Shown in pieces: positions 39,518 to 62,677 of a DNA stretch of 64,000 nucleotides. How positions within the stretch are numbered: position 1 is the first letter of the stretch; each line of letters starts with the position of its first letter. Where the stretch lies: contig JAQTQG010000001.1 of assembly GCA_028712375.1 (NCBI GenBank), forward strand, positions 46,126 to 110,125, written 5' to 3'. Under the pieces are notes generated by a model. It made no database searches and was not told the DNA's origin. It saw nothing but the letters and a program-made list of their open reading frames with translations. The stretch comes from Candidatus Omnitrophota bacterium (GTDB taxonomy: Bacteria; Omnitrophota; Gorgyraeia; Gygaellales; Profunditerraquicolaceae). Position numbers and translations under genes: made by a program.

Positions 39518-40384
39518 ATGAAAGGGATTGTCCTAGCAGGAGGCAAGGCCACCAGGCTTTATCCAATCACTAAGGCTGTCTGCAAGCAGATGTTGCCGAT
39601 CTATGACAAGCCGTTGATTTATTATTCTCTCTCCGTATTGATGCTTGCCGGGATTAAAGATATCCTGATAATTTCCACTCCTAAAGATTTGCCGAGGTTT
39701 AAGGAGTTGTTGGGGGATGGCGCTAATCTGGGAGTAAAATTTTCTTACGCTTGTCAGCCTGAGCCGGAAGGCATTGCGCAGAGTTTTATTATCGCCGAGG
39801 ATTTTATAGGCAAAGATAGTGTTTGCCTGATTCTAGGCGATAATATATTTTATGGTTATAATTTAAGCGGGTTATTGCAGGATGCAGCAAAACTAAAAAG
39901 CGGGGCAGTTGTTTTTGGCTGTACCGTCAGGGATCCTGAGCGTTATGGCGTATTTGATTTTGATAAAAGCGGAAAAGTAATTTCAATTACTGAGAAGCCC
40001 GGGAAGGCAAAAACCAACTGGGTAGTTTCCGGGCTTTACTTTTACGATAATCAGGTTATTAAGATCGCCAAAAAAGTTAAACCATCATCCCGCGGGGAAC
40101 TGGAGATCACCAGCGTGAATAATGAATATATTAAGAAAAATAAGTTAAAAGTGCAATTCTTAGGGCGGGGCTATGCCTGGCTGGATACGGGAACCTATGA
40201 ATCATTAATTGAGGCCTCGGCATTTATTAAAACTATCGAAGAAAGGCAATGTTCAAAAATAGGTTGTATTGAAGAGGTTGCTTACCGGATGAAGTATATC
40301 AATAAGGCGCAGCTTGCCAAGCTGGCCGAAGAGATTAATACCGGTTATGGAGACTATTTAAAAGGGCTGGTTAATGATAGATAA
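39518..40384 (+). CDS. rfbA: glucose-1-phosphate thymidylyltransferase
   Basis: MKGIVLAGGKATRLYPIT...MLPIYDKP. Confidence 0.9.
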   Translation: MKGIVLAGGKATRLYPITKAVCKQMLPIYDKPLIYYSLSVLMLAGIKDILIISTPKDLPRFKELLGDGANLGVKFSYACQPEPEGIAQSFIIAEDFIGKDSVCLILGDNIFYGYNLSGLLQDAAKLKSGAVVFGCTVRDPERYGVFDFDKSGKVISITEKPGKAKTNWVVSGLYFYDNQVIKIAKKVKPSSRGELEITSVNNEYIKKNKLKVQFLGRGYAWLDTGTYESLIEASAFIKTIEERQCSKIGCIEEVAYRMKYINKAQLAKLAEEINTGYGDYLKGLVNDR

Positions 40385-41198
40385 GAACGTTTTAGTTTTA
40401 GGTAAAGGTTTTATCGGCCAAAGGCTGCAAGAGGGCTTGAATTGCGCAATAACTGAAGTATTCATAAAAACTTACCAGGATGCCGACAGATTAATTAAGC
40501 GCTATCGGCCTAAAGTAATTATTAATTGTATCAGCGTAACCGGTAGAAGAAATGTTGATGATTGTGAACAGGAAAAAGACGCGGTTCTTTCAGCTAACAG
40601 CTTTGTCCCGGTAATTTTAGCAGAAGTATGCCTGCGCAATAAAATCAAACTTGTGCATATAAGCAGCGGATGTATCTTTAATTATGATTATAAAAAAGAC
40701 AGGCCGGTTGATGAAAACAGCCGGAATTATTTTTTTAAATTGTTTTATAGCCGCAGTAAAATTTATGCCGACAGGGCTTTAGAGGTTTTAGCCCGCGATT
40801 ATGATATTCTCATTGCCCGGATCAGGATCCCGCTACTTAATGCCCGGCACCCTAAAAATATATTAGATAAGTTAATTAAGTACAAAAAAGTTATTGATTT
40901 GCCGAATTCGGTAACTTATATTCCCGATTTTGTCCGGGCAATCAAGCATTTGATAAAAATTAATGCATGCGGTATTTATAATATTGTGAATAAGGGGGCC
41001 TTGCGTTACCCGGCGCTTATGGATATGTACCATAGGTACAAACCGTCTTTTAAGTATACTGTGATTGATCCTGGCAGCCTGGGCTTAGTCCGGACGAACT
41101 TATTGATGTCTACGGCTAAATTAGAGAAGTCCGGATTTAAGGTTAGGAACATCAATACAGTTTTAGAGGAATGCCTAAAAGAATACCTAAAATCCTAA
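40374..41198 (+). CDS. RmlD-like NAD(P)-dependent dTDP-sugar 4-ketoreductase
   Basis: GKGFIG Rossmann motif, YSRSK (YxxxK); 274 aa RmlD_sub_bind-like; no rmlC in the window. Confidence 0.55.
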   Translation: MIDKNVLVLGKGFIGQRLQEGLNCAITEVFIKTYQDADRLIKRYRPKVIINCISVTGRRNVDDCEQEKDAVLSANSFVPVILAEVCLRNKIKLVHISSGCIFNYDYKKDRPVDENSRNYFFKLFYSRSKIYADRALEVLARDYDILIARIRIPLLNARHPKNILDKLIKYKKVIDLPNSVTYIPDFVRAIKHLIKINACGIYNIVNKGALRYPALMDMYHRYKPSFKYTVIDPGSLGLVRTNLLMSTAKLEKSGFKVRNINTVLEECLKEYLKS

Positions 41199-42178
41199 TT
41201 ACCGGCGGCGCCGGTTTCATGGGCAGCGCTTTTGTGAAGTTGTTAATTAAGGGGAGCTTTTCTGTTCAAGGGGAGCTTCCCTTTGTTGTTGTGGATAGAT
41301 TAACTTATGCCGGAGATCTTAAGCGTTTGGAAAGCGTGCGGAGAAAGTTTAAATTCTATAAGGTCGATATTTGCAATAAGAGACAAATCGATTCGGTATT
41401 TAAAAAAGAGAAGCCGGAGATTGTGGTGCATTTTGCCGCTGAATCGCATGTTGACCGCAGTATTAATGATGCCCAGGTGTTTATTAAGACTAATGTTAAA
41501 GGGACGCAAATTTTGATTGATGCCTGCCGTAGATATGGAGTAAAGAAATTTGTTTATATTTCTACGGATGAGGTTTATGGGAAGCTTGTCCATGGTAAGT
41601 TCAAGGAAAACGCTTGTTTTAAACCGAATAATCCTTATGCGGTTTCCAAGGCGACGGCAGATCTTTTGGTGCAAGCATATGTTAAGGCCTATAAGTTTCC
41701 GGCGATAATCATCAGGCCGTCGAATAATTATGGCCCTTGGCAATACCCGGAGAAATTTATTTCTTTGGGGATTTTGAGAGTATTGGAGGGCGGGAAAATC
41801 CCATTGTACGGGGACGGAAAAAATATACGCCAATGGCTTTATGTTGATGATTGCATGCGCGGTATTGCCGCCATTATGCGTAAAGGCAGGGTTGGAGAAG
41901 TTTATAATTTAGGGGGGATTGGTGAAAGCAGGAATATCGATACAGCTAAGCTATTACTAAAAGTTCTTGGTGTAAGCCCGGAGCAAATTGAGTTTGTGCA
42001 GGATCGTTTAGGCCATGACATAAGATACAGCCTTGATTCATCAAAAGTTTATCGGGAGCTTGGTTGGAAGGCGCAAGTCGGGTTTATACAGGGGCTTAAG
42101 CTTACGGTAGATTGGGCGTTGCAGCATCAAAGATGGCTTAAGAGCAAGCTGCCGGATATTAACAAGCTATATAAATAG
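41171..42178 (+). CDS. rfbB: dTDP-glucose 4,6-dehydratase
   Basis: ILITGGAGFMGS, catalytic YAVSKATAD, 335 aa. Confidence 0.9.
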   Translation: MPKRIPKILITGGAGFMGSAFVKLLIKGSFSVQGELPFVVVDRLTYAGDLKRLESVRRKFKFYKVDICNKRQIDSVFKKEKPEIVVHFAAESHVDRSINDAQVFIKTNVKGTQILIDACRRYGVKKFVYISTDEVYGKLVHGKFKENACFKPNNPYAVSKATADLLVQAYVKAYKFPAIIIRPSNNYGPWQYPEKFISLGILRVLEGGKIPLYGDGKNIRQWLYVDDCMRGIAAIMRKGRVGEVYNLGGIGESRNIDTAKLLLKVLGVSPEQIEFVQDRLGHDIRYSLDSSKVYRELGWKAQVGFIQGLKLTVDWALQHQRWLKSKLPDINKLYK

Positions 42179-43095: not shown

Positions 43096-43926
43096 ATGAT
43101 GGATAGTCATCTGCATGTTCAGGAAGATGGGGTTGATCTAAAGAAATATATCAGTATTTTGGTTAAAAGAAAAAAACTTATACTGGGCATTTTCCTTATT
43201 ACGATAGCTATTTCCGCCGTAGCCAGCTTTTTTATCCCTAAGGTTTATGAAATTACCTCTACAATCCAATTGGGGAACATAAACGGGCCTTTGATTAGTA
43301 AAGAAGAGTCAAAAGAGATAATTCTAAATCAAAACGCAATCTCGGATCTAATTAATAAATTAAATCTTAAGCTAGGAGTTGAGGGGCTTAAAAGAAGTAT
43401 TAATATCAGCAGTATAAATGGTACTAATTTATTAACGGTAAAAATAATCTATTCTGATCTGGCCGAAGCTTTTAAGATACATGATGTGCTTTTAGACCCG
43501 CTTATCGCGCAGGGTAAAAAAATCTATCAAGAGCGGATATTTCTTGTTAATGAAAGGCTGAAGGAATTAGATGCGGAAATAAGCAACTCCGAGCAAGATA
43601 TTAGCCGGACTCAGGCTTTAATTGCCGGGCTCCCTAATGCCAGTAATATTTCTCAATCCGATGTTTCCTTAAGAATAATCCTGCTGCAAAATACCCTGCC
43701 TAATTATGAAAATAATCTTACTTCTCTTAGAGACCAAAGAAATAACCTGAAATATTTATTAAGCAACGCCAGGGATTTTATGGTTTTTGATAAGCCCATT
43801 AAACCTGAAAATGCTATGGGGCCCGATAAAAAGCAGAAAATTATTACTGCCGGCGTGTTGAGCCTGGTATTTGGTATATTACTAGCTTTTTTCCTGGAAT
43901 ATTGGCAAAAAGATAAACAAAAATGA
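43096..43926 (+). CDS. Wzz/GumC-like polysaccharide chain-length determinant (PCP family)
   Basis: N-terminal TM helix after KKYISILVKRKKLILGIFLI, a long coiled-coil periplasmic region, a C-terminal TM helix; extended -10 tgcTATAAT upstream. Confidence 0.55.
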   Translation: MMDSHLHVQEDGVDLKKYISILVKRKKLILGIFLITIAISAVASFFIPKVYEITSTIQLGNINGPLISKEESKEIILNQNAISDLINKLNLKLGVEGLKRSINISSINGTNLLTVKIIYSDLAEAFKIHDVLLDPLIAQGKKIYQERIFLVNERLKELDAEISNSEQDISRTQALIAGLPNASNISQSDVSLRIILLQNTLPNYENNLTSLRDQRNNLKYLLSNARDFMVFDKPIKPENAMGPDKKQKIITAGVLSLVFGILLAFFLEYWQKDKQK

Positions 43927-44609
43927 AAAATTCCTGTTTAGCAATAATTCCGGCCCGCGGCGGTTCGAAGGGGCTGAAAAATAAGAATATAAAGAACTTA
44001 AATGGCAAGCCGTTAATTTATTACTCGATAAAGGAAGCGCAAAAAGCAAAGTGCATAAGCAAAATTATTGTTTCTACTGATTCCGAGAAGGTAAAACGAA
44101 TTGCTTTAAAATTCGGAGCGGAAGTGCCTTTCTTACGCCCGAAGAATCTATCTTCGGATAGAACTCCGATGTATCCGGTAAATAAACACGCCCTTGAATT
44201 ATTAGAAAAAAGGGGAGAAAGATTTAATATTGTGATAGTTTTGCAGCCGACATCCCCCCTAAGAAAAGCAGCGGATATCCAAAAGGCTGTCGCCAAGCTT
44301 AATAAAACAAAAGCGGATTCTGTGGTGAGCGTTTGTTTAGCTGAACACTCCCCATATTGGATGCGCGTAATAAAAAAGGGGAAAGTTTATCCTTTTGTTA
44401 AATCGCGCCAGTATTTACGCAGGCAGGATTTGCCAAAAGTGTACAGGCTGAACGGGGCTGTTTATGTAACCAGGGCAGAGGTATTGTTTAAACAGGGGGT
44501 GATTTTAGGAAAGAATACGCTGCCATTAGTTATGCCCCAGGATTCTTCTGTGGACATTGATACAGGATTGGATTTTAAGTTAGCGGAATTAATTTTGAAA
44601 AATAAATGA
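43923..44609 (+). CDS. CMP-nonulosonic acid synthetase (acylneuraminate cytidylyltransferase family, NeuA/PseF/LegF-like)
   Basis: AIIPARGGSKGLKNKNIKNLNGKPLIYYSI is the canonical CMP-NeuAc synthetase N-terminus. Confidence 0.85.
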   Translation: MKNSCLAIIPARGGSKGLKNKNIKNLNGKPLIYYSIKEAQKAKCISKIIVSTDSEKVKRIALKFGAEVPFLRPKNLSSDRTPMYPVNKHALELLEKRGERFNIVIVLQPTSPLRKAADIQKAVAKLNKTKADSVVSVCLAEHSPYWMRVIKKGKVYPFVKSRQYLRRQDLPKVYRLNGAVYVTRAEVLFKQGVILGKNTLPLVMPQDSSVDIDTGLDFKLAELILKNK

Positions 44610-45655
44610 ATAAAATACAGATAGGAACAAGGTGGGTAGGTAATGATCTGCCAGTATTTGTTATCGCTGAAGCCGGGGTAAACCATAACGGAGATATCAA
44701 ATTAGCAGAAAAACTTATCCGGGAAAGCAAGAAATGCGGGGCAGATTGTGTTAAATTCCAGTCTTTTAAAGCTGACCGGGTTGTTTCTTTAGATGCTCCG
44801 AAAGCGCAATATCAGCTGCAGACGACAGATCCAAGGGAAACTCAATATGAGATGTTGCGTAAATTAGAGTTAAAAGAAAATGATTATTCGAAGCTTATTT
44901 CAGTTTGCCGCGATGAAAATGTATTATTTCTTTCTACCCCTTATAATTCTGAGGATGTTGATTTTCTTTACGCTTTAGATGTTCCTGCTTATAAAATAGC
45001 ATCCGGCCAGTTAATTGAACTGCCTTTTTTAGAATATGTTGCTAAAAAAGGAAAACCGGTTATTATTTCAACTGGTATGGGGACATTGGATGAGGTGAAG
45101 ACTGCAGTAGAGACTATTCGCAATACGGGGAATAACCAAATAGTTATTTTGCAGTGCACTACGCATTATCCCTCTTGTATTGAAGATGCCAACCTCAGGG
45201 CTATGTCCACGATGAGAGAAGCATGCCGCGCTTTAGTTGGCTATTCGGATCATACATCCGGAGATTTATCTGCTATTGCAGCAGTTGCTTTGGGAGCTTG
45301 TATAATAGAAAAACATTTTACATTAGATAAGGATCTCGAAGGGCCTGATCAATCGTGTTCTGCTAATCCTGAAGAATTCATGCGATTGGTTAAAAATATT
45401 CGTTTTGTAGAGCAGTCCTTGGGGTCAAGCCAGAAATATCCTACAAAGCTAGAAAGTGTAAATGCCAGAATGATGCGAAGAAGTATCTTTGCTAAACAGG
45501 CTATTCCGGCGGGGGCTATTTTATCTTTGGAGAATATTTCGTTTAAGAGGCCGGCAATAGGGATTTTAGGGACTCAGAGTGGTTGCGTATTTGGAAAACG
45601 AGCTAAACATAACATATCAGAAAACACGCTTATAACTATGGATTTAATTGAATGA
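44606..45655 (+). CDS. nonulosonic acid synthase (NeuB/PseI/LegI family)
   Basis: VFVIAEAGVNHNGDIKLAEKLI...; 349 aa with a C-terminal SAF-like domain. Confidence 0.85.
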   Translation: MNKIQIGTRWVGNDLPVFVIAEAGVNHNGDIKLAEKLIRESKKCGADCVKFQSFKADRVVSLDAPKAQYQLQTTDPRETQYEMLRKLELKENDYSKLISVCRDENVLFLSTPYNSEDVDFLYALDVPAYKIASGQLIELPFLEYVAKKGKPVIISTGMGTLDEVKTAVETIRNTGNNQIVILQCTTHYPSCIEDANLRAMSTMREACRALVGYSDHTSGDLSAIAAVALGACIIEKHFTLDKDLEGPDQSCSANPEEFMRLVKNIRFVEQSLGSSQKYPTKLESVNARMMRRSIFAKQAIPAGAILSLENISFKRPAIGILGTQSGCVFGKRAKHNISENTLITMDLIE

Positions 45656-46260
45656 AAAAAGCTGCGATATTTGGTGCGGGAGGGCACGCCAGGGTAGTTG
45701 CTGCTGCTTTAAAAGCGAATGGAATTCCGATATTTGGCTTTTTTGATGATAATTTTTCTGCGGAGGAGAAAATTCAGGGGGCGCCAGTTTTAGGTAAGTT
45801 TAACGATATCCTTTCTTTTAAAAAAGATATCGCTGACGTTTATTTAGGAATTGGTGATAACTTGAGAAGGCGTTGTTCATATGTTTTTTTGGAAGAGAAC
45901 AGATTTAGTATGCCTCGCCTAGTGCATCCAAAAGCTTACGTTGAAGATAATGCTAGTATTAAAGATGGAACAATCATTTGTATTGGAGCTGCAGTCTGTG
46001 CAGAAGTAAAAATAGGGCAAGGTGTAGTTATTAATACTGGTAGTTCTGTAGACCATGAGTCTTCTCTGGCTGATTTTGTTCATCTGGCTCCTGGAGCAGT
46101 TATTGCCGGAAGAGTGAGTGTTGGCTCTAATTCTTTTGTGGGAATTAATGTTTCGGTTAAAGATAAAGTGAAAATAGGCAGCAACGTTATTATTGGGGCA
46201 GGAGCAATTGTTCTTAAGGATGTTCCCGATAATACAACGGTCGTTGGAATATGGAAATAG
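45652..46260 (+). CDS. hexapeptide-repeat sugar N-acetyltransferase (NeuD/PglD family)
   Basis: AAIFGAGGHARVV N-terminal Rossmann-like motif and a left-handed beta-helix repeat region. Confidence 0.75.
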   Translation: MKKAAIFGAGGHARVVAAALKANGIPIFGFFDDNFSAEEKIQGAPVLGKFNDILSFKKDIADVYLGIGDNLRRRCSYVFLEENRFSMPRLVHPKAYVEDNASIKDGTIICIGAAVCAEVKIGQGVVINTGSSVDHESSLADFVHLAPGAVIAGRVSVGSNSFVGINVSVKDKVKIGSNVIIGAGAIVLKDVPDNTTVVGIWK

Positions 46261-47129
46261 ATAAAAGCAAGGTTTTCGTTTCGACTAGGGCATTTTGCAA
46301 TAATAACCTGGCAGGCGTTTTAGAATTGTGTCAAAAACAGGGTATTAGCAATCTTGAATTGGGGTCTAATTTAAGATTCGTAAATAAAAATATTTCGGAT
46401 TTGATGTATTTCAAGAATTGCTTTAAAGGCAAATTATTAATTCATAATTATTTTCCGTCTCCCCAAAAGGCATTTGTAATCAATTTGGCTTCTAGCGATA
46501 AAGGTATCTTAAAAAAAAGTAAACAGCATTGTCTAAGAGCGATAAAATTGTGTGCCAAGTTGAAAGTTCCTTTTTACAGCGTGCACTCCGGATTTTGTTT
46601 TGAAGCTGCTCCCAATAATCTTGGTAAAAAGTTAACAAGATTGCCGCGTATTTCTTTGGCAGAAGCGGAAGATATATTTGTTAATAGCCTGAGGGAATTA
46701 TCGCATTTGTCCGCATCATACGGGGTGGAAATTTTAATCGAAAATAATGTAGTGACTTTAGGCAATACTATTAATTCTAAAAATCTTCTTATGTTGGGAG
46801 TGAGCTCTGAGGATTTGCTGCGTATTTTAAAAAAAGCAGGTGCGGATAATATCTCTATCCTGCTTGATATTGCGCATCTTAAGGTATCTGCTAACAGCCT
46901 GGGATTTTCTCCCGTATCTTTTATAAAAGATATTAAGCGGCATGTCCGGGCGTTGCACCTTAGTGATAATGATGGAAAAAATGATCAACACCTTAGTTTT
47001 TCGGATAAATCCTGGTTTGTTCCTTTTTTAGGTAATTTTAAAGGTAAGTACTTGATTATTGAATGTGATAATTTACAGATAAAAGATATATTCAAATGCC
47101 GTGATGTTATTTGCGGCGCGCTACAATAA
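46251..47129 (+). CDS. sugar-phosphate isomerase/epimerase (xylose-isomerase-like TIM barrel)
   Basis: 292 aa with AP-endonuclease-2/TIM-barrel-like composition; weak assignment. Confidence 0.45.
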   Translation: MEIDKSKVFVSTRAFCNNNLAGVLELCQKQGISNLELGSNLRFVNKNISDLMYFKNCFKGKLLIHNYFPSPQKAFVINLASSDKGILKKSKQHCLRAIKLCAKLKVPFYSVHSGFCFEAAPNNLGKKLTRLPRISLAEAEDIFVNSLRELSHLSASYGVEILIENNVVTLGNTINSKNLLMLGVSSEDLLRILKKAGADNISILLDIAHLKVSANSLGFSPVSFIKDIKRHVRALHLSDNDGKNDQHLSFSDKSWFVPFLGNFKGKYLIIECDNLQIKDIFKCRDVICGALQ

Positions 47130-47148
47130 AATTAAACTTAGGGCTAAA

Positions 47149-48597
47149 ATGGCGATAGATATACGTAAGCTAAAGACAGACAGCGAATCAAGTATAAAAG
47201 AGGCTATGAGGGTTATTGATAAAAATGGCCTTGGACTTGTTTTAGTTACTGATAAACGCAAGAAATTCTGTGGTTTAGCAACGGATGGCGACGTGAGAAG
47301 AGCGGTGTTGGCTGGGTGTGGATGGAAAACTAGAATTAAAGATGTTATGCAAAAAAATCCCGTGGTGGTAAGAGCGGGTACGGATAAAGAAGAGATATTG
47401 AAGTTAATGAGTTCGAAGATCAGGCATATTCCGATTCTTGATGAAAATAACAAAATAATTAATCTTGCTTCATATGCGCATTTTTTCCATATCCCGGTTA
47501 CCGAACCTGAAATAGAGGGCAAAGAGTTGGAGTATGTCACGGATTGCATCGCTACAGGCTGGGTCTCTTCCGGTGGTAAATATGTTAAATTATTTGAAGA
47601 TAATTTTAGTGAATTTTGCCAAACTAAGTATAGTATTGCTGTTTCTAATGGAACGGCTGCTCTGCACTTGGCTTTAGCGGTTTTGGGCGTTGGAAAAGGG
47701 GATGAAGTTATTGTGCCAACTTTAAGTTTTATTGCTACGGCAAATGCGGTTAGTTATACCGGAGCAAAGCCGGTATTTGTAGATGTTCAAAAAGACACTT
47801 GGAATATAGATCCGGAAAAAATTAAAGATGCGATAACCTCTCGAACTAAAGCAATTATCCCTGTGCATCTTTATGGACATCCAGCGGATATGGATCCGAT
47901 TCTTTCTCTTGCGAAAAAGCATAAGCTTTATGTTATTGAGGATGCGGCGGAAGCTCATGGAGCTGAATACAAAGGCAAAAAGGTCGGTTCTTTCCCGGAT
48001 GTGGGTTGTTTCAGTTTTTTTGGCAATAAAATTATTACTACCGGTGAAGGAGGAATGATCACCACGAATAATCCGGATATCGCGCAAAAAGCAATAATAT
48101 TGCGTGATCACGGAATGTCTAGAGAAAAGAAATATTGGCATCCGTATATCGGATTTAATTACCGCCTTACGAATATTCAGGCGGCCATCGGAGTAGCGCA
48201 ACTAGAGAAAATAGCAAGCTTGATAAAAAGAAAAAGAGAGAATGCGCGCTTGTATTCTTGTCTTCTTAAAGGCGTAAAAGGTATCGTTCTGCCTGTAGAG
48301 AAAAAATGGGCAAAGAGTGTTTATTGGATGTATTCCATACTTGTTGAAGATAGTTATGGTATTTCAAGGGATCTTTTAATGCGCAAACTGTCTGAGCGCG
48401 GTATTGATACTAGGCCGGTATTTTATCCTATTCATATTATGCCTCCTTATGCGGATAATAAGAAATTTCCGATTGCAGAAGAGATATCTAGAAAAGGTAT
48501 AAGTCTCCCTTCAGCAGTGTCATTAAAAGAAGATGAAATTAGGAGAATCGCGGCTGCGATTAAAGAAATCGGAAGGGGCAGGGGGAAGCGATGTTAA
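47149..48597 (+). CDS. CBS-domain pair fused to a DegT/DnrJ/EryC1-family sugar aminotransferase
   Basis: N-terminal ~120 aa CBS pair (…VLVTDKRKKFCGLATDGDVRRAV…IPILDENNKIINL…), then the aminotransferase with PLP-Lys context FSFFGNKIITTGEGG; an alternative start at 47101 is possible. Confidence 0.8.
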   Translation: MAIDIRKLKTDSESSIKEAMRVIDKNGLGLVLVTDKRKKFCGLATDGDVRRAVLAGCGWKTRIKDVMQKNPVVVRAGTDKEEILKLMSSKIRHIPILDENNKIINLASYAHFFHIPVTEPEIEGKELEYVTDCIATGWVSSGGKYVKLFEDNFSEFCQTKYSIAVSNGTAALHLALAVLGVGKGDEVIVPTLSFIATANAVSYTGAKPVFVDVQKDTWNIDPEKIKDAITSRTKAIIPVHLYGHPADMDPILSLAKKHKLYVIEDAAEAHGAEYKGKKVGSFPDVGCFSFFGNKIITTGEGGMITTNNPDIAQKAIILRDHGMSREKKYWHPYIGFNYRLTNIQAAIGVAQLEKIASLIKRKRENARLYSCLLKGVKGIVLPVEKKWAKSVYWMYSILVEDSYGISRDLLMRKLSERGIDTRPVFYPIHIMPPYADNKKFPIAEEISRKGISLPSAVSLKEDEIRRIAAAIKEIGRGRGKRC

Positions 48598-50093
48598 AGG
48601 GGGCGTTAAAAATATTGGGTGGTAATATTATTTCGTACCCGTTTAATCTTGCTAAAGTATTTATTATCGCTAAGGTCTTGGATCCGGGAACATATGGGGT
48701 ATTTAGTTTGTTTACCGTTATTCTTTCTTATAGTCTTTGGTGCGAATTCGGTATACTTAGCGGCATGGATAAAATAATTCCTTATTTAAGAGGTAAATCT
48801 GATTATACGGAATTAAATAACATAAGAAACGCGGCGTTTACATGGTTTATTTTTGTGTATTTATTTTTAATAATAGTTTTATTTTTTGTAACTTTTATCC
48901 CAGGTTTTTCATTTTCCAAAGAAATTAATGTTGGTTTACGATTATTATCTGTTGTCATTTTTTTATCTGTGGTGCAGAATTTTTTCTTGACTATTGCGAG
49001 AGCGGAGAAACGATTCGGTACCATCGGCATGACAAATGCAGTATTTGCAGTTTCATCGGTTTTATTATTGCTCTTGTTTTTTAAAGCTCCCTTGGATCGG
49101 CTGCATGCTACTTTAATATCATTTATTCTGGCGTACGCAATTTCACTTTTGTTCTGTATGCTGCGTTCAGAATTTAACTTTAAAATGAATTTAAGTGTAA
49201 GCAAGTTAAAGAAAATTATTCATATGGGTTTTCCTATAGTAGTTATCGGCATTAGCTTTACGATATTTACTAGTATTGACCGTTGGGTAATTGTGAAGTA
49301 TTTAGGCAAATCTCAGCTGGGTTATTATGCTTTTGGTATGTCTATTGCCAATTTCTTGTTCGGGCTAATGGCTGTATTTGCTTATGTCTCATTTCCATTG
49401 GTGCGGGAAAGATTTGCTAAAGAGAGTGATTTAACTAAATTTAATCCATATATGCATAACACAATGTTGTTAATGAGTTATATAATTGCTTTTTCCAGCA
49501 GTATTTTAATAGCAACCCTTCCCTTTGTTTATAAAAACATTTTTTATAAATATGCGTCAGGCTTGGAATCAGCTTATTTTTTAATAATCGGTATTTTTTT
49601 TATTTCTATGGCAACAATTCCCGGAAATTTCATAGTAGCAATAAATAAGCAAAAAGTTATTATATTCGCTCAGGCTATCGGAATTGCTGTTTTATTAATC
49701 GCAGATTACCTTGTGGTAAAGCTTACAGGTAGTATAACCGGAGTCTCTGCCGTGACAGCAGGGACTTTTTTCATTTACAGCGTTTTTGTTATTTCTTGTT
49801 CATTCAAGTATGTGGGGGATACTTACGCTAAATCATTTAAATTGATATTGAAGTTACTTTTACCTTTTGCTTTAGGTTTATTGATTGTGTTTTTGTTAAG
49901 GGTAGTATTTAATTCTTTAAGTGCTCCGGAATTATTTGTAACTCTGTTTAAAGTTGTTACTTTGGTTTTTTTCTACCCGTTATTATTTTATTTACAAAAT
50001 AAAGACATGGGAATTTTCAGAAAAACTAAGATTCTGCTAGGCAATAATGTTCAACCAGTTACGGAAAATTATACGCCGTCTGGTTTATTCTAA
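48591..50093 (+). CDS. Wzx-like polysaccharide flippase (MOP superfamily)
   Basis: 500 aa, about 12-14 TM helices, N-terminal segment typical of polysaccharide-biosynthesis flippases. Confidence 0.7.
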   Translation: MLKGALKILGGNIISYPFNLAKVFIIAKVLDPGTYGVFSLFTVILSYSLWCEFGILSGMDKIIPYLRGKSDYTELNNIRNAAFTWFIFVYLFLIIVLFFVTFIPGFSFSKEINVGLRLLSVVIFLSVVQNFFLTIARAEKRFGTIGMTNAVFAVSSVLLLLLFFKAPLDRLHATLISFILAYAISLLFCMLRSEFNFKMNLSVSKLKKIIHMGFPIVVIGISFTIFTSIDRWVIVKYLGKSQLGYYAFGMSIANFLFGLMAVFAYVSFPLVRERFAKESDLTKFNPYMHNTMLLMSYIIAFSSSILIATLPFVYKNIFYKYASGLESAYFLIIGIFFISMATIPGNFIVAINKQKVIIFAQAIGIAVLLIADYLVVKLTGSITGVSAVTAGTFFIYSVFVISCSFKYVGDTYAKSFKLILKLLLPFALGLLIVFLLRVVFNSLSAPELFVTLFKVVTLVFFYPLLFYLQNKDMGIFRKTKILLGNNVQPVTENYTPSGLF

Positions 50094-50236: not shown

Positions 50237-51406
50237 GTGCAAAATAGAGAGTCAGTGCTTAGTAAAGCCAAGCATGAACAGCAATCTATGGATTCCATCA
50301 AGTTTTTAACGAAAAATAAACTTGATGATTATTTTCTTGCAGAGGTTATTGACCAGCTTAAGCATGATAAGGATGATAAGCGCTATGCCCAGGAAGTGGG
50401 TATACTCAATGAGATTATATGTAATTTAGAGGATAATGTGGAATTTTCCGGAGATAAAAGCAGGTTTGTAGTTTTACCAAACGAATATAATTTTTTATCC
50501 CAGAATAATAAGTTTCTTTGGGCTGAATATCTTATTTTTAGATATAAATTCAGAATTTATCCTAAGTTTGGGCGGTTGCCTGATTTTCCAATACACTTGT
50601 TAATTGAGCCGGTATCTTATTGTAACATTAAATGCTCTATGTGTTTCCAGACGGATGCTGATTTTACAAAACCCCCGTATATGGGTAACATGGATATTGG
50701 GTTATTCAGAAGCATTATAGATGAGGCTGTAGAAAATAAGTGCAGAGCTCTAACTTTGGCTTCTCGCGGTGAACCAACACTGCACCCGAATTTTGCTGAA
50801 GTTATAAACTATGCTAGGGGTAAATTTTTTGATTTTAAATTGAATACAAACGCTGTCAGTTTAGATGAGAAAAAATGTCATCAAATATTGCAAGGCGAGG
50901 TTACTGAGCTTGTTTTTTCAGTGAATGCAGTCAACAAGAATGAATATCAACAAGTTTGTAAGATTGATAAATTCGAGCAAGTAGTTAATAATATAAAACA
51001 GTTTCATAGAATTAGAAATAAGGATTACCCTGAATCGAAATGTAAGACACGGGTGAATGGGGTAGAGTATGGCCCGGATTTTAGTGAAGAGCAATTTTTA
51101 AACTTTTGGGATAAGATTGTTGATAATGTTGTGTGTTTAAAAGTTTTTAAGCGTTGGGATACTTATAACAATATTCTTTCTTCTGTTAGCTCTCCCTGTG
51201 CTTTATTGTGGCAACGAATTTATGTTTGGTTTGATGGTACTGCTAGCCCCTGTGACCGTGATTATAAAAGTTTATTGAAAATAGGCAACATCCGGGAATC
51301 TTCCGTTAAGAGCATCTGGAATGGTGAAAAAATGAACCTATTACGTAAGAAGCATAAAGAAGGCTTCCGCAGTTGTTTTTTTCCCTGCGATCGTTGCGAG
51401 GACTAA
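50237..51406 (+). CDS. radical SAM enzyme with ~120-aa N-terminal extension and Cys-rich C-terminus (possible SPASM/twitch)
   Basis: CNIKCSMC (CxxxCxxC) at about aa 129-136; C-terminal cysteines C..PCDRD...SCFFPCDRCED. Confidence 0.7.
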   Translation: MQNRESVLSKAKHEQQSMDSIKFLTKNKLDDYFLAEVIDQLKHDKDDKRYAQEVGILNEIICNLEDNVEFSGDKSRFVVLPNEYNFLSQNNKFLWAEYLIFRYKFRIYPKFGRLPDFPIHLLIEPVSYCNIKCSMCFQTDADFTKPPYMGNMDIGLFRSIIDEAVENKCRALTLASRGEPTLHPNFAEVINYARGKFFDFKLNTNAVSLDEKKCHQILQGEVTELVFSVNAVNKNEYQQVCKIDKFEQVVNNIKQFHRIRNKDYPESKCKTRVNGVEYGPDFSEEQFLNFWDKIVDNVVCLKVFKRWDTYNNILSSVSSPCALLWQRIYVWFDGTASPCDRDYKSLLKIGNIRESSVKSIWNGEKMNLLRKKHKEGFRSCFFPCDRCED

Positions 51407-51408
51407 TT

Positions 51409-52413
51409 ATGCGGGAATATAAAATTGGATTTATAGGTTATAAAGGACAGGCTGGCCGCTTAATCAAGATATTTGAAAATATTAAACGGTGTAAGATTTC
51501 TTGTTTTTATCATCCTGAAAAACATATTGATGTTAAGCAGATTGCTGTTTGTAACCATCCGGACTTGTTTGCAACCAGGAAGTTATCTGACCTGTATTCA
51601 TGCGCCGGTATTGTAATATGTGCTCCGAATTATATGCATTTTTCTTATCTTAAAGAACTCATTAAGGATTACAGGGGGTACATCTTTTGTGAAAAGCCTC
51701 CTGTGTCTAATTTTCGGGAGTTAGCATCTTTACGGAAGTTTTCAACTGCAGATAAAAAGAGAGTTTATTTTAATTTTAATCAGCGTTTTGGTTTTCTTGC
51801 GGAGCTGCTTAAGGTGTTTCCTAAAAGATATAATCTTGGAGAACCAATCAGGGCAGCTATTGTTAGCGGTCATGGGCTTGGTTTTCAGGAATCCTATAAA
51901 TCATCATGGCGGGCTAAAAAAGAGCTCCATGAGGGTGGGGTGTTAGAGACTTTAGGGATTCATTTTATTGATTTATTGAGTTTTACCTTTGGTGCATCGA
52001 AAAACATTTTTTGTTTCGCAGAAAATCTCTCTCCTTATGGTGATGCAATTGATACTTGTCATTTTTCTTGTATTTTTGGCAGTAAATTATATTTTAATCT
52101 AACCTGTAGCTATTGTATGCCTTTTACACATAGTATAAAGATAGATTATACTAATGGGTCAATTGATATTGATGATAAGGAAATTAAAGTTTTTACACCT
52201 AGGGAGGTGTTTGACAAAAACGGAAGATTTGTCCGCCCTCCGTTGCGTTATAGGAAGCTTATAGATTATAATAAGTTATATTCTGAATCTTTAGAAGTTT
52301 CGTGCCAGTATTTTATGGATTGCCTTTGTAAAAGACGTGAGATTAATTTGGAGTATTTTAAGCAAAGTATTCTTTCCAATGAAATTTATCTGAAGGCTTT
52401 GGAAAATGTATAA
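51409..52413 (+). CDS. Gfo/Idh/MocA-family NAD(P)-dependent oxidoreductase
   Basis: N-terminal Rossmann IGFIGYKGQAGR...ICAPNYMHF...EKP; starts 3 nt after the radical SAM stop. Confidence 0.7.
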   Translation: MREYKIGFIGYKGQAGRLIKIFENIKRCKISCFYHPEKHIDVKQIAVCNHPDLFATRKLSDLYSCAGIVICAPNYMHFSYLKELIKDYRGYIFCEKPPVSNFRELASLRKFSTADKKRVYFNFNQRFGFLAELLKVFPKRYNLGEPIRAAIVSGHGLGFQESYKSSWRAKKELHEGGVLETLGIHFIDLLSFTFGASKNIFCFAENLSPYGDAIDTCHFSCIFGSKLYFNLTCSYCMPFTHSIKIDYTNGSIDIDDKEIKVFTPREVFDKNGRFVRPPLRYRKLIDYNKLYSESLEVSCQYFMDCLCKRREINLEYFKQSILSNEIYLKALENV

Positions 52414-53505: not shown

Positions 53506-53902
53506 AAAAATTATTCATGATAATAAACTGATAGCAATAATCCTGCGTAAAGATTTTCATAAAGAAGGGATTTCTTTTCTTACGGATAATGATGCGCAGT
53601 TGCAGTTGGGGTATTTAAGCCATCCGGCAGGCCACGAGGTAAAACCGCACACTCATAAACCGGTGATCAGGAATACTTTGGGAACCCACGAAGTGCTCTT
53701 TATCAAAAACGGAGTAATCGAAATTGATTTTTATTTAGCTGATAAAACTTATCTGGAAAGCAGGAAGTTGTTGGCGGGTGATGTAATTTTATTGGCAGAG
53801 GGCGGGCATGGGATAAAAGTTTTAGAGGCAGCTACGATTGTTGAAGTAAAGAATGGGCCTTATATTGAGGATAAAGAAAGATTTCAGAGGAAGAAGGATT
53901 AA
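53498..53902 (+). CDS. small cupin, FdtA/WxcM-like candidate NDP-4-keto-6-deoxyhexose 3,4-ketoisomerase
   Basis: 134 aa; His pair HEVKPHTH; cupin beta-sandwich pattern; lies between a dehydratase and an aminotransferase, as fdtA does. Confidence 0.5.
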   Translation: MIEKIIHDNKLIAIILRKDFHKEGISFLTDNDAQLQLGYLSHPAGHEVKPHTHKPVIRNTLGTHEVLFIKNGVIEIDFYLADKTYLESRKLLAGDVILLAEGGHGIKVLEAATIVEVKNGPYIEDKERFQRKKD

Positions 53903-53906
53903 TTAT

Positions 53907-55849: not shown

Positions 55850-55858
55850 GGGATATAT

Positions 55859-56980: not shown

Positions 56981-56993
56981 GGAGTGTTCATAA

Positions 56994-58642: not shown

Positions 58643-58667
58643 TAAAACTGGAAGAGGTAAAATAAAA

Positions 58668-59658: not shown

Positions 59659-61227
59659 ATGGATAAGCAGCAATTTGAATTTTCAGTCAAAATTTTTAAC
59701 CAACTGGGAGAATCCCGGCTGAAGTCAGGCAGGACTTTGCGGGAAGAGCTATGCTTGGGGCAGGAAATATCCTTTTGGGATATTTTAGCTCCTTACTTAG
59801 TGCTTTACCGTTTTCCTCTGTTATTTCTTAAAAATAATCAAAACTTTACGGTAAAAGAATGGTGGAAGTATTATCTGCGGCCTTTTAGGGGGCGGGTTGC
59901 GCAATTTATGGATTCGGCGATTTTTTATTTCTGCAGGAATGTTAAAGATTGTTTACGTTGGCCGGCAGGCAGGCAACCAGTATTGTTCCTGGCTTTTACT
60001 CAAACATTTTATCGTGATGTTTTGCATCCGGTAACGGAATTCTTTATTAAGAAAGACAGCAGACAGGTTGTGGTGCTTGAGCATAACAGAAGTCTTCCGG
60101 ACAATTTTAGCCCGGATAGCAAAATAGAATTTCAATCACTTTGCGGGCATTGGGGAATTGAAGCCAATAATTTAGGTAAAAATTTGTTAGAGCGGCTCAA
60201 GGCTCTGCAAAAATCCCTATTGAATAAAAATCAGCTAATGGTATTAACGCAAAGTGTTTCCGGGGATTTTAGCAAGTTTGCTTTACGCCAAGAGTTTTAT
60301 TGGATTTTTTGGCGTGAACTAAGGCGTTTAATTCCTATGTACGCTGTGGCTAAGCATATTTTGGAAGAACATAAGCCTGCTTTGATTGTTTCTGCGGATG
60401 ATGCTGACCAGCGTCATAGAATTTTTTCTTTGCTTGCCCGGAAAAAAGGAATTCCGGCTTTACTTGTACAGCAGGGCCTTTGTCATAAAGATTATCCGGA
60501 GTGGTTATTTTTTTCTCATACTATGGTCGCTGCTATGGGGCAGGCTTCGGCAGATGATATGATTTCGCAAGGTGTTCCTCCTGAAAAAATTATGGTTACC
60601 GGCAATCCTGGATTCGACCAGTTTAGCTTTATTGAGCCTGAGGCTGTTGCGTTTTTGCGTAAACGGCTAGGGGTGTTGGATAATGAAAAGATGGTATTGT
60701 TTGCCTGCCAGCCATATTATGTTGGAGTTTTTAATACCCCCCAGATACGCAGCCAAATGATTGAGGCGATTGCTCAGGCAGCGGGTTCTTTAAAGAACAT
60801 TAAACTTGTGGTTAAGCCGCATCCGGCTGATAATGTGCGTCAGCTTAAAAAGTTATTGGATAAATCGCCGCAGGCAGTTATGGTAGACCGTAAGATGGAT
60901 ATTTCGCCTTTGATTAAAGCCTGTGACGTTCTAGTCACTTTTTTTTCAACTGCAGCTTTACAGGCGCTTTATGCCGGTAAGCCGGTTATCAATGTAGAAT
61001 TCCCGGATAGTTCCGGCAATAATATTTATTCTGAAAGCGGAGCAACCCGGGTAGCTCGTTCGACTGGTGAAATTATTAAGTGTCTCCAGGATTTAATTCA
61101 ATACAGGGTTGAGGATCCTGGATACGAAACTAACCGTCAGCTTTTTTTACGTAAAATGCTGCATTTTCCCGATGGGTTAGCTAGCGAGCGTGTTTTAAAG
61201 GTTGTTGCAGAAATGTTATCATCTTAA
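59659..61227 (+). CDS. hypothetical polysaccharide-biosynthesis protein (possible GT-B-like; VKPHP motif reminiscent of glycerophosphotransferase/capsule-synthesis enzymes)
   Basis: 522-aa ORF, no TM segments, alpha/beta composition; weak assignment. Confidence 0.3.
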   Translation: MDKQQFEFSVKIFNQLGESRLKSGRTLREELCLGQEISFWDILAPYLVLYRFPLLFLKNNQNFTVKEWWKYYLRPFRGRVAQFMDSAIFYFCRNVKDCLRWPAGRQPVLFLAFTQTFYRDVLHPVTEFFIKKDSRQVVVLEHNRSLPDNFSPDSKIEFQSLCGHWGIEANNLGKNLLERLKALQKSLLNKNQLMVLTQSVSGDFSKFALRQEFYWIFWRELRRLIPMYAVAKHILEEHKPALIVSADDADQRHRIFSLLARKKGIPALLVQQGLCHKDYPEWLFFSHTMVAAMGQASADDMISQGVPPEKIMVTGNPGFDQFSFIEPEAVAFLRKRLGVLDNEKMVLFACQPYYVGVFNTPQIRSQMIEAIAQAAGSLKNIKLVVKPHPADNVRQLKKLLDKSPQAVMVDRKMDISPLIKACDVLVTFFSTAALQALYAGKPVINVEFPDSSGNNIYSESGATRVARSTGEIIKCLQDLIQYRVEDPGYETNRQLFLRKMLHFPDGLASERVLKVVAEMLSS

Positions 61228-61231
61228 AAGA

Positions 61232-62677
61232 ATGAAATTAAGCTTAGCAGGAAAAAATTTTATTTTGCCCGGTAAAATGCAATTATTTCTAAGTTGTATA
61301 GCAGCAGGGGCTGCTGCTTATCTTGCTTTTTTTTGCAATCTGCAGCTCTTGCAGGTAATTACGATAGCTTCAGGCTTATTTTTGGCAGGTTTAGCTTTTA
61401 AATCCGATAAGACCTGGATCCCTATCTTGTTTATTTTATTGCCCATGAGAGGTTTTCAGTTGGGCAGTGTTTGGGGGGCAGGGGCAATCAGGGCAGGGGA
61501 TATCTTTATTGCGTATATATTCTTATTGTGGTTATTTAAATATGCCCATAAAGATAAGCCGGGTAATTTTATCAGGTCTAAGCTGGATTTATTTATAGTA
61601 TTATTCCTTGTTTTTTATATGCTTTCCTTATTTTGGTCCAGCAAGATCGACTTAGGTTTAATTCGAGTTATGAAATTTATCCGTAATTTTTGTTTTTTCC
61701 TATTAATCCGGGAGTTGTTTATTAAAGATTTCCGTGATAACTATAAAAAATTAGTCATTTGTTCTATGGTGATGGGGTTAGCGGTGGGGTTAGTGTACCT
61801 TTTTTCGATCTTTAAAGATGTAACCCCGTTACAGTTTAATTCACTTTATGAGAAAGAAGTATTGACTTCTATTGACCTGGGATTTTGGAGAAAACGCATT
61901 ACCGGAGGAGGGATTTTTCTTAACGGAGCCAGTAACTTTTTGATGTTATCAGGAGTATTTATTTTTGGCTCGCTTGTCTTAGCGCAGAATAAATTTAAGC
62001 GTTGGCTAAAAATAGTTCTAATTATATTTATGTTTTCGGTAGCATCTATAGGAACATTGTCCCGTTCGGCAATGGTGAGTGTGGCTTTAATACTGGTTAT
62101 TTTGTTAGTCGGTAATTATAAAATTAATTTGAAGCAAAATAAAAGATTTTTTATTAGTATTGTTTTGTTTTTTGCGATTGTGATTTTTTCTTTAGGTGTA
62201 CATAAGCTTGTTTTGAAGAGATTTGTTAATCCGTTTCAGGACGGTTCTTGGGCTCAAAGGGTAGATTTAGCTAAGGTGGCGCTTAAGGGTTTCTGGCATA
62301 GCCCGGTTATCGGAATAGGCCCGGGGAGTAATTTTACCTGGCAGTCACTTTATGCTGAGCAGGTTGCTTCACGGGTTCCGGATAATTTGTATTTGAATAT
62401 TCTAAGTGAAGTGGGGGCGGTGGGTTTTCTTTTGTTCTTAGTGATAATATTTTTATGGTTGGAATGTCTTATAAAATGCATGCAAGATAGGGACGCGGAT
62501 ATTTATCTGCGCAATATTTGTCTTGCGATTTTTGCTTTTGGTTTAAGTTATCTTTTGGCAGCATTAATCAGCCAGGAATTCGAATCTTTTGAAGCCTGGA
62601 TTATGCTAGGAATTACATCTGCCATATGTAGTATCCGGGCAAGAAGTAAAGAACTGTCTGTGCAAGGGGCTAGCTAA
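61232..62677 (+). CDS. Wzy_C-family membrane protein (O-antigen polymerase, ligase or O-oligosaccharyltransferase family)
   Basis: 10+ TM helices; large periplasmic loop containing RVPDNLYLNILSEVGAVGF, resembling the O-antigen ligase motif with Asp in place of His; an alternative start at 61202 is possible. Confidence 0.5.
   Translation: MKLSLAGKNFILPGKMQLFLSCIAAGAAAYLAFFCNLQLLQVITIASGLFLAGLAFKSDKTWIPILFILLPMRGFQLGSVWGAGAIRAGDIFIAYIFLLWLFKYAHKDKPGNFIRSKLDLFIVLFLVFYMLSLFWSSKIDLGLIRVMKFIRNFCFFLLIRELFIKDFRDNYKKLVICSMVMGLAVGLVYLFSIFKDVTPLQFNSLYEKEVLTSIDLGFWRKRITGGGIFLNGASNFLMLSGVFIFGSLVLAQNKFKRWLKIVLIIFMFSVASIGTLSRSAMVSVALILVILLVGNYKINLKQNKRFFISIVLFFAIVIFSLGVHKLVLKRFVNPFQDGSWAQRVDLAKVALKGFWHSPVIGIGPGSNFTWQSLYAEQVASRVPDNLYLNILSEVGAVGFLLFLVIIFLWLECLIKCMQDRDADIYLRNICLAIFAFGLSYLLAALISQEFESFEAWIMLGITSAICSIRARSKELSVQGAS

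Follow-up and report, generated by a model that had tools for sequence, protein, structure and literature searches.

We analysed a 64,000-nucleotide (64-kb) stretch of DNA from a Candidatus Omnitrophota bacterium (contig JAQTQG010000001.1, hereafter the window), in which five contiguous genes at 43923-48597 form a module of nonulosonic-acid type. The identities originally predicted for these five genes from the sequence alone were all correct, in agreement with the Pfam and NCBIfam profile scores. The module lies on the + strand, as do all open reading frames (ORFs) of at least 100 amino acids (aa) that resemble genes in the window (1-64000), and its genes are:

43923..44609, + strand: NeuA-like CMP-nonulosonate synthetase (cytidylyltransferase), 228 aa; CTP_transf_3 (PF02348), 102.9 bits.
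44606..45655, + strand: NeuB-type nonulosonate synthase, condensing with phosphoenolpyruvate (PEP), 349 aa; PF03102, 314 bits, plus SAF.
45652..46260, + strand: NeuD/PglD/PerB-type N-acetyltransferase, 202 aa; PglD_N plus hexapeptide, and the NeuD family TIGR03570 at 210.8 bits (cut-off 160.8).
46251..47129, + strand: TIM-barrel metalloenzyme of the AP_endonuc_2 superfamily, 292 aa; PF01261, 66.5 bits versus 31.1.
47149..48597, + strand: CBS pair, linker and pyridoxal-phosphate aminotransferase, 482 aa; two CBS stretches (PF00571), 58.7 bits versus 24, and DegT_DnrJ_EryC1, 457 bits.

Stop and start codons overlap or almost touch across all five genes, which thus form a single operon. The last ORF is open from a GTG at 47101 (47101-48597), and its true start is probably the ATG at 47149, which gives 482 aa as in the NCBI protein P0121. 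The CBS-aminotransferase fusion that had been predicted is real, the CBS and DegT domains being encoded in one ORF. The NeuB-type protein scored above the cut-off of the LegI/NeuB model TIGR03569 (NeuB_NnaB; 415.4 versus 399.65 bits) and below that of PseI (301 versus 340); against solved structures of the NeuB family it gave 205 bits for PseI, 198 for SpsE and 185 for NeuB, a comparison from which no product type can be assigned. The closest solved structures to the NeuA-like protein were the CMP-Neu5Ac synthetases 6ifd and 1eyr, and its score for the PseF equivalog (193.1 bits) was under the cut-off of 205.7.

The module was described in the original prediction as lacking a canonical PseB/LegB dehydratase and a NeuC/LegG/PseG epimerase, and profile and six-frame searches bore this out across the window. 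No homologue of WecB/NeuC (Epimerase_2) was found among the six-frame ORFs of the whole 64 kb (phmmer with E. coli WecB as query, E ≤ 1). The sole match to Pfam Epimerase_2 (PF02350) in the window was a partial one, in the C-terminal half of a 522-aa GT-B protein (59659-61227). We considered whether this protein could be a cryptic NeuC and ruled it out: only its C-terminal half matched, and its NCBIfam matches pointed to glycan-transferase families. No PseG-like GT-B protein was identified in the window either. As for the dehydratase, no ORF in the window reached the LegB model (TIGR04180), the best being the RmlB gene with 139.6 bits against a cut-off of 475, followed by two Gmd genes (91.6 and 78.1 bits); a phmmer search with a true LegB, from locus L025 (see below), matched only the RmlB gene and these two Gmd-family genes in the window. 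The RmlB gene was also the best match to PseB (48 bits versus 408), and the models of the pseudaminic acid pathway remained unreached in the window, PseC (319 versus 423.5) as well as PseB, PseI and PseF.

To see how the module is placed in other genomes, we fetched 80 genome loci by similarity to the TIM-barrel protein, clustered all their ORFs and counted 86 loci bearing a TIM-barrel gene (TIM loci). The family is large, with about 990 cluster representatives at E ≤ 1e-30 in a profile search, nearly all of 280-300 aa, and its homologues were 30-49% identical to the window protein. The loci came from Omnitrophota, SAR11 (including Ca. Pelagibacter ubique HIMB4), Prochlorococcus single-cell genomes, SAR86 and Verrucomicrobiota, as well as from Nitrospira, Bacteroidota, Desulfobulbia and several proteobacterial classes. 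NeuB was present in 83 of the 86 loci, DegT in 76 (median length 483 aa), NeuA in 68 and NeuD in 56. The commonest order was NeuB-acyltransferase-TIM-CBS.DegT-NeuA; in the first three contexts examined it was NeuB-NeuD-TIM-CBS.DegT-NeuA. In a reverse check, two arbitrary CBS-DegT homologues, on contigs of 4.9 and 6.8 Mb, were likewise found within the module, with the gene order of the window. A cultured example is Azospirillum sp. TSA2s, where the module lies on plasmid p2 and PGAP names the TIM-barrel protein a 'sugar phosphate isomerase/epimerase family protein'; this was the single TIM-barrel match in the plasmid collection, and the phage collection contained no homologue.

A NeuC-family gene was found in only 4 of the 86 TIM loci, never within the module, and in three of them (L035, L037, L048) it lay beside a separate second NeuB/NeuA set. 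Because the module recurs in this form, the absence of NeuC is a property of the module, not a defect of this cluster, and the TIM barrel belongs to it and is no passenger. Far from being peculiar to this genome, the arrangement is a conserved and widespread module, whose usual form has the CBS fusion (57 of the 86 loci), and the assignment of the TIM-barrel protein to it stands. It would be extremely improbable, in our judgement, that the five genes do not constitute one pathway and that a canonical dehydratase and epimerase encoded elsewhere complete a Leg, Pse or Neu route, with the TIM barrel as a bystander. Our view is limited to 64 kb of the genome, which leaves room for such genes, but the TIM-barrel gene sits tightly between the acetyltransferase and aminotransferase genes, stop and start codons overlapping, its position is kept in dozens of distant loci, and in some of them it is fused to a GNAT domain.

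The acyltransferase slot itself varied. An N-acyltransferase of some kind was found in about 70 of the 86 loci; in 12 loci beyond those with NeuD the slot was taken by a GNAT protein and in 4 by a formyltransferase. The formyltransferase (PF00551) adjoined the TIM barrel in L042, L055, L076 and L086; since it occupies the NeuD slot, these loci may, by analogy with N-formylperosamine, make N-formyl variants of the sugar. Proteins that combine GNAT and the TIM barrel in one chain (427-444 aa) were found in Bacteroidia (P0107/P0108, P0342, P0366, P0367 and L093:5157-6440), and L093 had the order NeuB-[GNAT-TIM]-DegT-Gmd-NeuA, with a DegT protein devoid of CBS. These fusions tie the step of the TIM barrel to the acylation step.

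One indication of the nucleotide sugar that feeds the module came from the aminotransferase. Its catalytic domain was 49% identical over 359 residues to the GDP-perosamine synthase (Per) of Caulobacter crescentus (3bn1/3dr7; 383 bits, E 1e-113), the next solved protein scoring 330 bits and dTDP-sugar aminotransferases at most 233. It keeps the GNK lysine motif of Per, and many of its homologues carry the JGI annotation 'perosamine synthetase'. Judged by similarity only, it is an orthologue-level relative of GDP-perosamine synthase. For this reason we rejected a reading of it as an NtdA-like enzyme acting on a keto-sugar phosphate. Among solved structures, the acetyltransferase was closest to PerB (4ea7, 109.7 bits), with PglB (109.0) and VioB (108.2) effectively tied. 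We also observed one protein of tandem DegT domains (P0133, 753 aa), the first of which was 59% identical to the catalytic domain of the window; it had been considered as a TIM-DegT fusion, which its two DegT domains rule out.

The dehydratases found beside the module in other loci point in the same direction. Ten module-adjacent short-chain dehydrogenases/reductases (SDRs) were scanned with NCBIfam: seven were Gmd (473-587 bits versus 415), two were GDP-fucose synthases with a Gmd next to them, and one was LegB. When all SDRs were classified by BLAST, 16 loci proved to have Gmd within 3 kb of the TIM-barrel gene and 21 to have it within 10 kb; L093 has it as well. Gmd often lay within the operon, as in Gmd-NeuB-NeuD-TIM-DegT-NeuA (L014, L060) or TIM-Gmd-DegT (L049). 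The window holds two genes of this family, the first of which was 55% identical to the SDR inside the module of L007:

52450..53505, + strand: GDP-mannose 4,6-dehydratase (Gmd); TIGR01472, 413 bits versus 415, and PF16363, 404.6 bits.
58668-59657, + strand: second Gmd-like SDR; TIGR01472, 393 bits versus 415.

Since the adjacent dehydratases are true Gmd and the aminotransferase resembles GDP-perosamine synthase, the substrate is likely to be GDP-mannose and not a GDP-HexNAc, and the product is likely to be neither legionaminic nor pseudaminic acid. The suggestion that a Gmd-family enzyme serves as the dehydratase therefore holds up in part: Gmd adjoins the module across loci and the Gmd-family genes of the window are real, but the GDP-HexNAc proposed as its substrate gives way to GDP-mannose as the likelier one.

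Two other origins of the sugar were weighed against this one. The first starts from dTDP-glucose: RmlA and RmlB would yield dTDP-4-keto-6-deoxyglucose, VioA/VioB-like enzymes dTDP-Qui4NAc, which the TIM barrel would hydrolyse for NeuB. It owes its appeal to the bona fide RmlA/RmlB pair 1.7-4.4 kb upstream of the module (39518-42178; RmlA TIGR01207, 447 bits; RmlB TIGR01181, 393 bits), accompanied by no RmlC in the window and only a degenerate RmlD, to the RmlB-like gene and RmlA directly 5' of NeuB-NeuD-TIM in the TARA loci L004-6, and to the near tie of VioB among the acetyltransferase matches. The aminotransferase, with its much higher score for GDP-perosamine synthase than for any dTDP-sugar aminotransferase, argues against it, and adjacency to RmlA/RmlB is rare (RmlA cluster in 9 of 86 loci). 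We therefore regard a dTDP-glucose origin as very unlikely.

The second is a legionaminic or other 5,7-diamino acid route on GDP- or UDP-GlcNAc, in which a LegB/PseB-type dehydratase would be encoded elsewhere, the CBS-DegT protein would be LegC and the NeuD-type protein LegH, and the TIM barrel would both hydrolyse the substrate and epimerise C2 by way of a metal-stabilised enolate. The LegC-family HMM (hidden Markov model; TIGR04181) was in fact the best NCBIfam match of the aminotransferase, at 400 bits against a cut-off of 420, and in L025 the module has an NTP-transferase and a true LegB (525 bits) next to it. In about 16-21 loci, NeuA stands between GFO and SDR genes similar to PtmF and PtmA, an arrangement shared with the Leg loci of Campylobacter; amidotransferase/HisH/HisF sets, typical of the acetamidino modification of Leg and Pse, occurred in 12-13 loci and in Azospirillum; and epimerisation at a position adjoining a carbonyl is a known reaction of the TIM-barrel superfamily. 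Yet LegB adjoins the module in a single locus versus 16 for Gmd within 3 kb, there is no LegB/PseB in the window, the aminotransferase is close to a characterised GDP-perosamine synthase, and epimerisation does not need the multinuclear set of metal ligands described below. On balance we consider this route fairly unlikely.

Beside the module in these same 16-21 loci (for example L045, L071 and L077), the GFO/IDH/MocA oxidoreductase, NeuA and short-chain dehydrogenase formed a triplet, which mirrors the ptmF-legF-ptmA order of Campylobacter. Its frequent companions, a class-III-like aminotransferase (c43) and an unknown 400-aa protein (c58), suggest that the sugar is tailored further.

The TIM-barrel protein was modelled by AlphaFold2 with a predicted local distance difference test (pLDDT) score of 95. 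Its fold and its PF01261 score place it in the AP_endonuc_2 superfamily, and Foldseek matched it to endonuclease IV (Nfo)/APN1 with E of about 1e-11 to 1e-12. The nearest solved structure was MJ1311 (3wqo), which was also the closest by sequence (E 2e-17), followed by ketose 3-epimerases, TTHB071, endonuclease IV/APN1, UlaE and YcjR. Because the profile E-values for endonuclease IV (1.6e-5) and D-tagatose 3-epimerase (2e-5) were nearly equal, overall similarity was not decisive for function, and we turned to the metal site. The nine trinuclear zinc ligands of Nfo, reportedly described by Hosfield et al. in 1999 and confirmed here as to residue type in the E. coli sequence, could be paired with residues of the window protein as follows: H69 with H65, H109 with H112, E145 with E164, D179-x-x-H182 with D206-x-x-H209, H216-L-N-D with H236-L-S-D, D229-x-H231 with D245-x-H247, and E261 with E271. 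All nine positions were thus occupied, and eight were invariant in 86 homologues; the ninth (247) was Asn in 78 and His in 8, one of which is the window protein. Uechi et al. reportedly made the same nine-ligand observation on the structure of MJ1311 in 2014.

Mononuclear epimerases of this fold need only four of the nine residues. By its residues, therefore, the protein looks less like a sugar isomerase and more like an endonuclease-IV-type multinuclear metallo-phosphoesterase: the xylose-isomerase-like TIM barrel of the original prediction is right as to fold, but the likeness to an isomerase yields to the nine endonuclease IV positions. A multinuclear metal site activating water would suit the missing step of GDP release, and we propose on these sequence grounds that the TIM barrel is a GDP-sugar hydrolase replacing NeuC/LegG. 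The chemistry that follows Gmd would comprise five steps (amination, acylation, nucleotide release, condensation and CMP activation), a number equal to that of the genes in the module.

The protein could alternatively be an epimerase or isomerase acting at C3 or C5 of a 4-keto nucleotide sugar, or on a free sugar, with the nucleotide released by another enzyme, such as the Nudix protein at 58199-58642 or the product of an unlinked gene. The presence of D-tagatose/psicose 3-epimerases, UlaE and the 3-keto-glucoside 4-epimerase YcjR among its structural neighbours is consistent with this, as are the four ligands of the epimerase family (E164, D206, H236 and E271), and the Nudix protein does resemble GDP-mannose mannosyl hydrolase. 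But the recurrent five-gene unit would then be left without a step of nucleotide release, no Nudix family is among the recurrent neighbour clusters of the TIM loci, and H65, H112, H209 and D245, which have no role in mononuclear epimerases, are invariant and match endonuclease IV. Such a function is decidedly unlikely. Two further roles were rejected: that of a nonulosonate-9-phosphate phosphatase, as a 6-deoxy precursor cannot bear a 6- or 9-phosphate, and that of an aldose-ketose isomerase feeding the aminotransferase, as transamination of a 2-ketose would yield an aminoalditol.

The fusion of the CBS pair to DegT directly adjoined the TIM-barrel gene in 52 of the 57 loci that had it. In the AlphaFold2 model of the window protein, the CBS pair (residues ~1-110; pLDDT 86-95) formed two beta-alpha-beta-beta-alpha units, a separate Bateman module joined to the aminotransferase by a disordered linker (residues 112-120, pLDDT < 50). 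The motif GLxTDGD[IV]RR of the first CBS stretch, the usual ribose-binding signature, was at least 95% conserved, and that of the second was degenerate. Gmd lay within 1.7 kb of all five TIM-adjacent DegT genes without CBS versus 8 of the 52 with CBS (Fisher p = 3e-4), a value that is only indicative because the loci are not independent; L093 is a sixth case without CBS. The CBS pair is probably an allosteric sensor on the first committed enzyme where the module has to draw on a common pool of GDP-4-keto-6-deoxymannose, from which GDP-fucose and other sugars are made too, and dispensable where the module has its own Gmd. A nucleotide such as the CMP-sugar end product is a candidate ligand. In the TARA loci L004-L006 (14479-16161), we also found a CBS pair fused to a protein of the UDP-glucose/GDP-mannose-dehydrogenase family, in a locus with three NeuA-like and two NeuB genes; in nonulosonic-acid loci, fusion to a CBS pair seems to be a recurring feature that is not confined to one enzyme.

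Mean pairwise identity among the NeuB proteins of the module was 43%. A neighbour-joining split grouped all 69 of them (69/69) with NeuC-associated NeuBs, apart from a second, divergent type of NeuB. With TIGR03569 above and PseI below its cut-off, this position in the tree marks the NeuB of the module as Neu/Leg type, an enzyme predicted to take manno-configured sugars. The divergent type was found 3' of the module in nine loci (L001-L003, L010, L014, L018, L026, L030 and L040), together with a gene of the DHDPS/N-acetylneuraminate-lyase family; it was about 27% identical to the module NeuB and lay on the opposite side of the split. The two genes may provide a second ulosonic-acid-forming or chain-extending step. 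Unexplained C10 CMP-ulosonic acids have been described in Magnetospirillum (2026 preprint, 10.64898/2026.04.20.719630).

Taken together, these data are compatible with a self-contained, NeuC-independent route from GDP-mannose to a CMP-activated nonulosonic acid, for which we judge the case to be evenly balanced. All substrates, products and stereochemistry in the scheme are predicted. Gmd (52450) would form GDP-4-keto-6-deoxy-D-mannose, which the CBS-aminotransferase would aminate at C4 to GDP-perosamine, the first committed step, and the NeuD/PerB-type enzyme would N-acetylate the amine to GDP-N-acetylperosamine. The TIM barrel would hydrolyse this compound to free 4-acetamido-4,6-dideoxy-D-mannose, that is, to the precursor of legionaminic acid with a hydroxyl group at C2 in place of the acetamido group. 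With PEP, NeuB would then produce 7-acetamido-3,7,9-trideoxy-D-glycero-D-galacto-non-2-ulosonic acid (C11H19NO8, 293.11 Da), the 5-hydroxy analogue of legionaminic acid or 7-acetamido-7,9-dideoxy-Kdn. NeuA would convert it to the CMP-sugar, from which the 522-aa transferase would add it to a Wzx/Wzy-dependent surface polysaccharide. As the sugar is already manno-configured, no 2-epimerisation would be needed, which would explain the absence of NeuC/LegG; moreover, a 2-hydroxy sugar presumably could not use their 2-acetamidoglucal route, so that a different enzyme would be required.

Several observations weigh against this scheme. Only about one TIM locus in four has Gmd within 10 kb; Gmd is also common in glycan loci generally and was counted in TIM-bearing loci only, which are not phylogenetically independent. 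In the window, Gmd is 5.3 kb from the module, beyond a flippase, a radical-SAM gene and an oxidoreductase, and adjoins a second perosamine-synthase-like DegT gene (53853; 324 bits to Per, 48% identical to the first), which may be its main partner. The nucleotide sugar may also differ between loci, since the module is accompanied by a true LegB in L025 and by RmlA/RmlB in L004-6 and the window. LegC acts on a substrate that is GDP-linked and has the C4 stereochemistry predicted here, and its HMM was nearly reached, so the sequence is compatible with a GDP-HexNAc. The ligands of E. coli Nfo were paired by motif inspection and not by superposition of structures, because hmmalign of Nfo to the family HMM aligned a single segment. 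The Glu-Asp-His-Glu residues of ketose 3-epimerases are present in the TIM barrel as a subset of the nine, such epimerases are among its nearest structures, and 3wqo was deposited as 'D-tagatose 3-epimerase-like'. To our knowledge, no nucleotide-sugar hydrolase belongs to the xylose-isomerase-like TIM superfamily, and we know of no natural glycan reported to contain the predicted sugar.

The module is embedded in a surface-polysaccharide locus that begins at about 39.2 kb and takes up the rest of the window. Positions 1-39,000 carry housekeeping genes (DEAD-box helicase, efflux and ABC transporters, glycine cleavage, type IV pilus, RNase G, S1 and TyrRS), and the cumulative GC skew rose steadily over all 64 kb. 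From the 5' end, the locus consists of genes for SemiSWEET, RmlA, a degenerate RmlD-like protein, RmlB, an unknown 248-aa protein and Wzz, and then the five-gene module. The module is followed by genes for a Wzx flippase, a radical-SAM/SPASM protein, a GFO/IDH/MocA oxidoreductase, Gmd, an unknown 134-aa protein, the second DegT, a methyltransferase, a GT1 glycosyltransferase, a sugar C-methyltransferase, the Nudix hydrolase, the second Gmd-like SDR, the 522-aa GT-B protein, Wzy and a membrane glycosyltransferase-like protein. The features that give this context are:

43096..43926, + strand: Wzz-type chain-length determinant; PF02706, 40.7 bits.
48591..50093, + strand: Wzx-type flippase; Polysacc_synt and Polysacc_synt_3.
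59659..61227, + strand: GT-B protein of 522 aa, candidate transferase for the CMP-activated sugar; NCBIfam BFO_1060, 81 bits, and TIGR04396, 70.7 bits.
61202..62677, + strand: membrane protein of the Wzy/O-antigen ligase family; PF04932, 61.8 bits.

In addition to the C-terminal half of Epimerase_2, the 522-aa protein gave weak Pfam matches to polysialyltransferase, Capsule_synth and GT52, and a weak match to LIC12162; teichoic-acid transferase families were also among its co-occurring matches. Since the Epimerase_2 match is partial and coincides with those to transferase families, we read the protein as a putative transferase of an activated sugar. Between RmlA and RmlB, a 274-aa protein showed weak similarity to RmlD (49 bits versus a cut-off of 224); because no RmlC was seen in the window, the dTDP-sugar made by RmlA/RmlB is probably not rhamnose. 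The radical-SAM/SPASM protein (389 aa) and the GFO/IDH/MocA oxidoreductase (50237-52413), between the flippase and Gmd, are outside the conserved module. The 134-aa ORF (53498-53902), between Gmd and the second DegT, had no Pfam or NCBIfam match, and homologues of it were found in L008, L009 and L074. From 53853 to 59657, the perosamine-synthase-like DegT, a SAM methyltransferase, the GT1 protein, the sugar C-methyltransferase (Methyltransf_14), the Nudix protein and the second Gmd-like SDR look like a second pathway derived from GDP-mannose. As the second DegT, the methyltransferases and a Gmd-like reductase candidate follow Gmd, at least two branches probably share one pool of GDP-4-keto-6-deoxymannose in the window.

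Tentatively, and with confidence somewhat short of even, we suggest that the module makes a bacterial nonulosonic acid of a fourth core type, a 7-acylamido-3,7,9-trideoxy sugar derived from GDP-mannose that has a single amino function and a hydroxyl group at C5, that its TIM barrel is the first nucleotide-sugar hydrolase of the endonuclease-IV-like superfamily, and that the sugar, given how common the module is in SAR11, Prochlorococcus, SAR86, Omnitrophota, Verrucomicrobiota and other groups, is a major unrecognised component of environmental bacterial surfaces. In the open-access full-text literature, we found no description of the module, the predicted sugar or a function of the TIM-barrel family. 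Nonulosonic acids shape the recognition of bacterial surfaces by phages, grazers and immune systems. Marine bacteria that rank among the most abundant have the module in their variable surface-glycan regions, and the sugar could therefore influence how phages and their hosts interact in the ocean. If true, the proposal would add a further nonulosonic acid core structure and a new reaction for a well-studied enzyme superfamily, and would explain the many genomes that have NeuB and NeuA but no NeuC. A TIM barrel adjoining a CBS-perosamine-synthase would then serve as an annotation marker, and the module could offer an enzymatic route to 7-N-acyl-9-deoxy sialic acid analogues.

Among known systems, the CMP-legionaminic acid pathway of Campylobacter jejuni consists of LegB, LegC, LegH, LegG, LegI and LegF, with PtmE, PtmA and PtmF making GDP-GlcNAc (PMC4481668). 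By analogy, the module would share with it GDP-linked intermediates, a 4-aminotransferase, a NeuD-type acetyltransferase, a NeuB of Neu/Leg type and a NeuA-type CMP-transferase. It differs in having neither LegB nor LegG/NeuC, with a TIM-barrel metalloenzyme in the operon instead, and in its associated dehydratase, Gmd, from which we infer a hydroxyl and not an acetamido group at C5 of the product. The CBS pair, which in Campylobacter is carried by PtmE, is on the aminotransferase in the module. The C. jejuni pathway was reportedly established by Schoenhofen et al. in 2009.

The GDP-N-acetylperosamine pathway of C. crescentus (Gmd, Per and PerB; 3bn1/3dr4, 4ea7) is the counterpart of the other half of the module, whose aminotransferase is 49% identical to Per, whose acetyltransferase has PerB as its best solved relative by a narrow margin, and whose recurrent neighbour is Gmd. 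There, however, glycosyltransferases use the GDP-sugar directly and Per has no CBS pair; that NeuB and NeuA are embedded with perosamine-type enzymes here implies release of the sugar, lengthening to a nine-carbon chain and a new activation with CMP. Kdn biosynthesis offers a further parallel, as the predicted product has a 5-hydroxy D-glycero-D-galacto core derived from a mannose-configured hexose; Kdn, however, is made from mannose or mannose-6-phosphate without amination or 6-deoxygenation, whereas the predicted sugar would be 7-acetamido and 9-deoxy.

The TIM barrel has the fold of endonuclease IV and MJ1311 (Foldseek template-modelling score 0.63-0.82) and nine residues equivalent to the ligands, but is only 14-23% identical to them and occurs in a context of sugar biosynthesis and not of DNA repair. 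Its proposed role, to provide free 6-deoxy-hexosamine for NeuB, is that of NeuC/LegG and PseG, which are of GT-B fold and unrelated in fold and chemistry. NeuC/LegG eliminate the nucleotide via 2-acetamidoglucal, which requires a 2-acetamido group that the predicted 2-hydroxy sugar lacks. By these analogies, the module would work like a hybrid, the first half resembling GDP-N-acetylperosamine biosynthesis and the second that of sialic and legionaminic acids, with an unrelated enzyme in place of NeuC/LegG.

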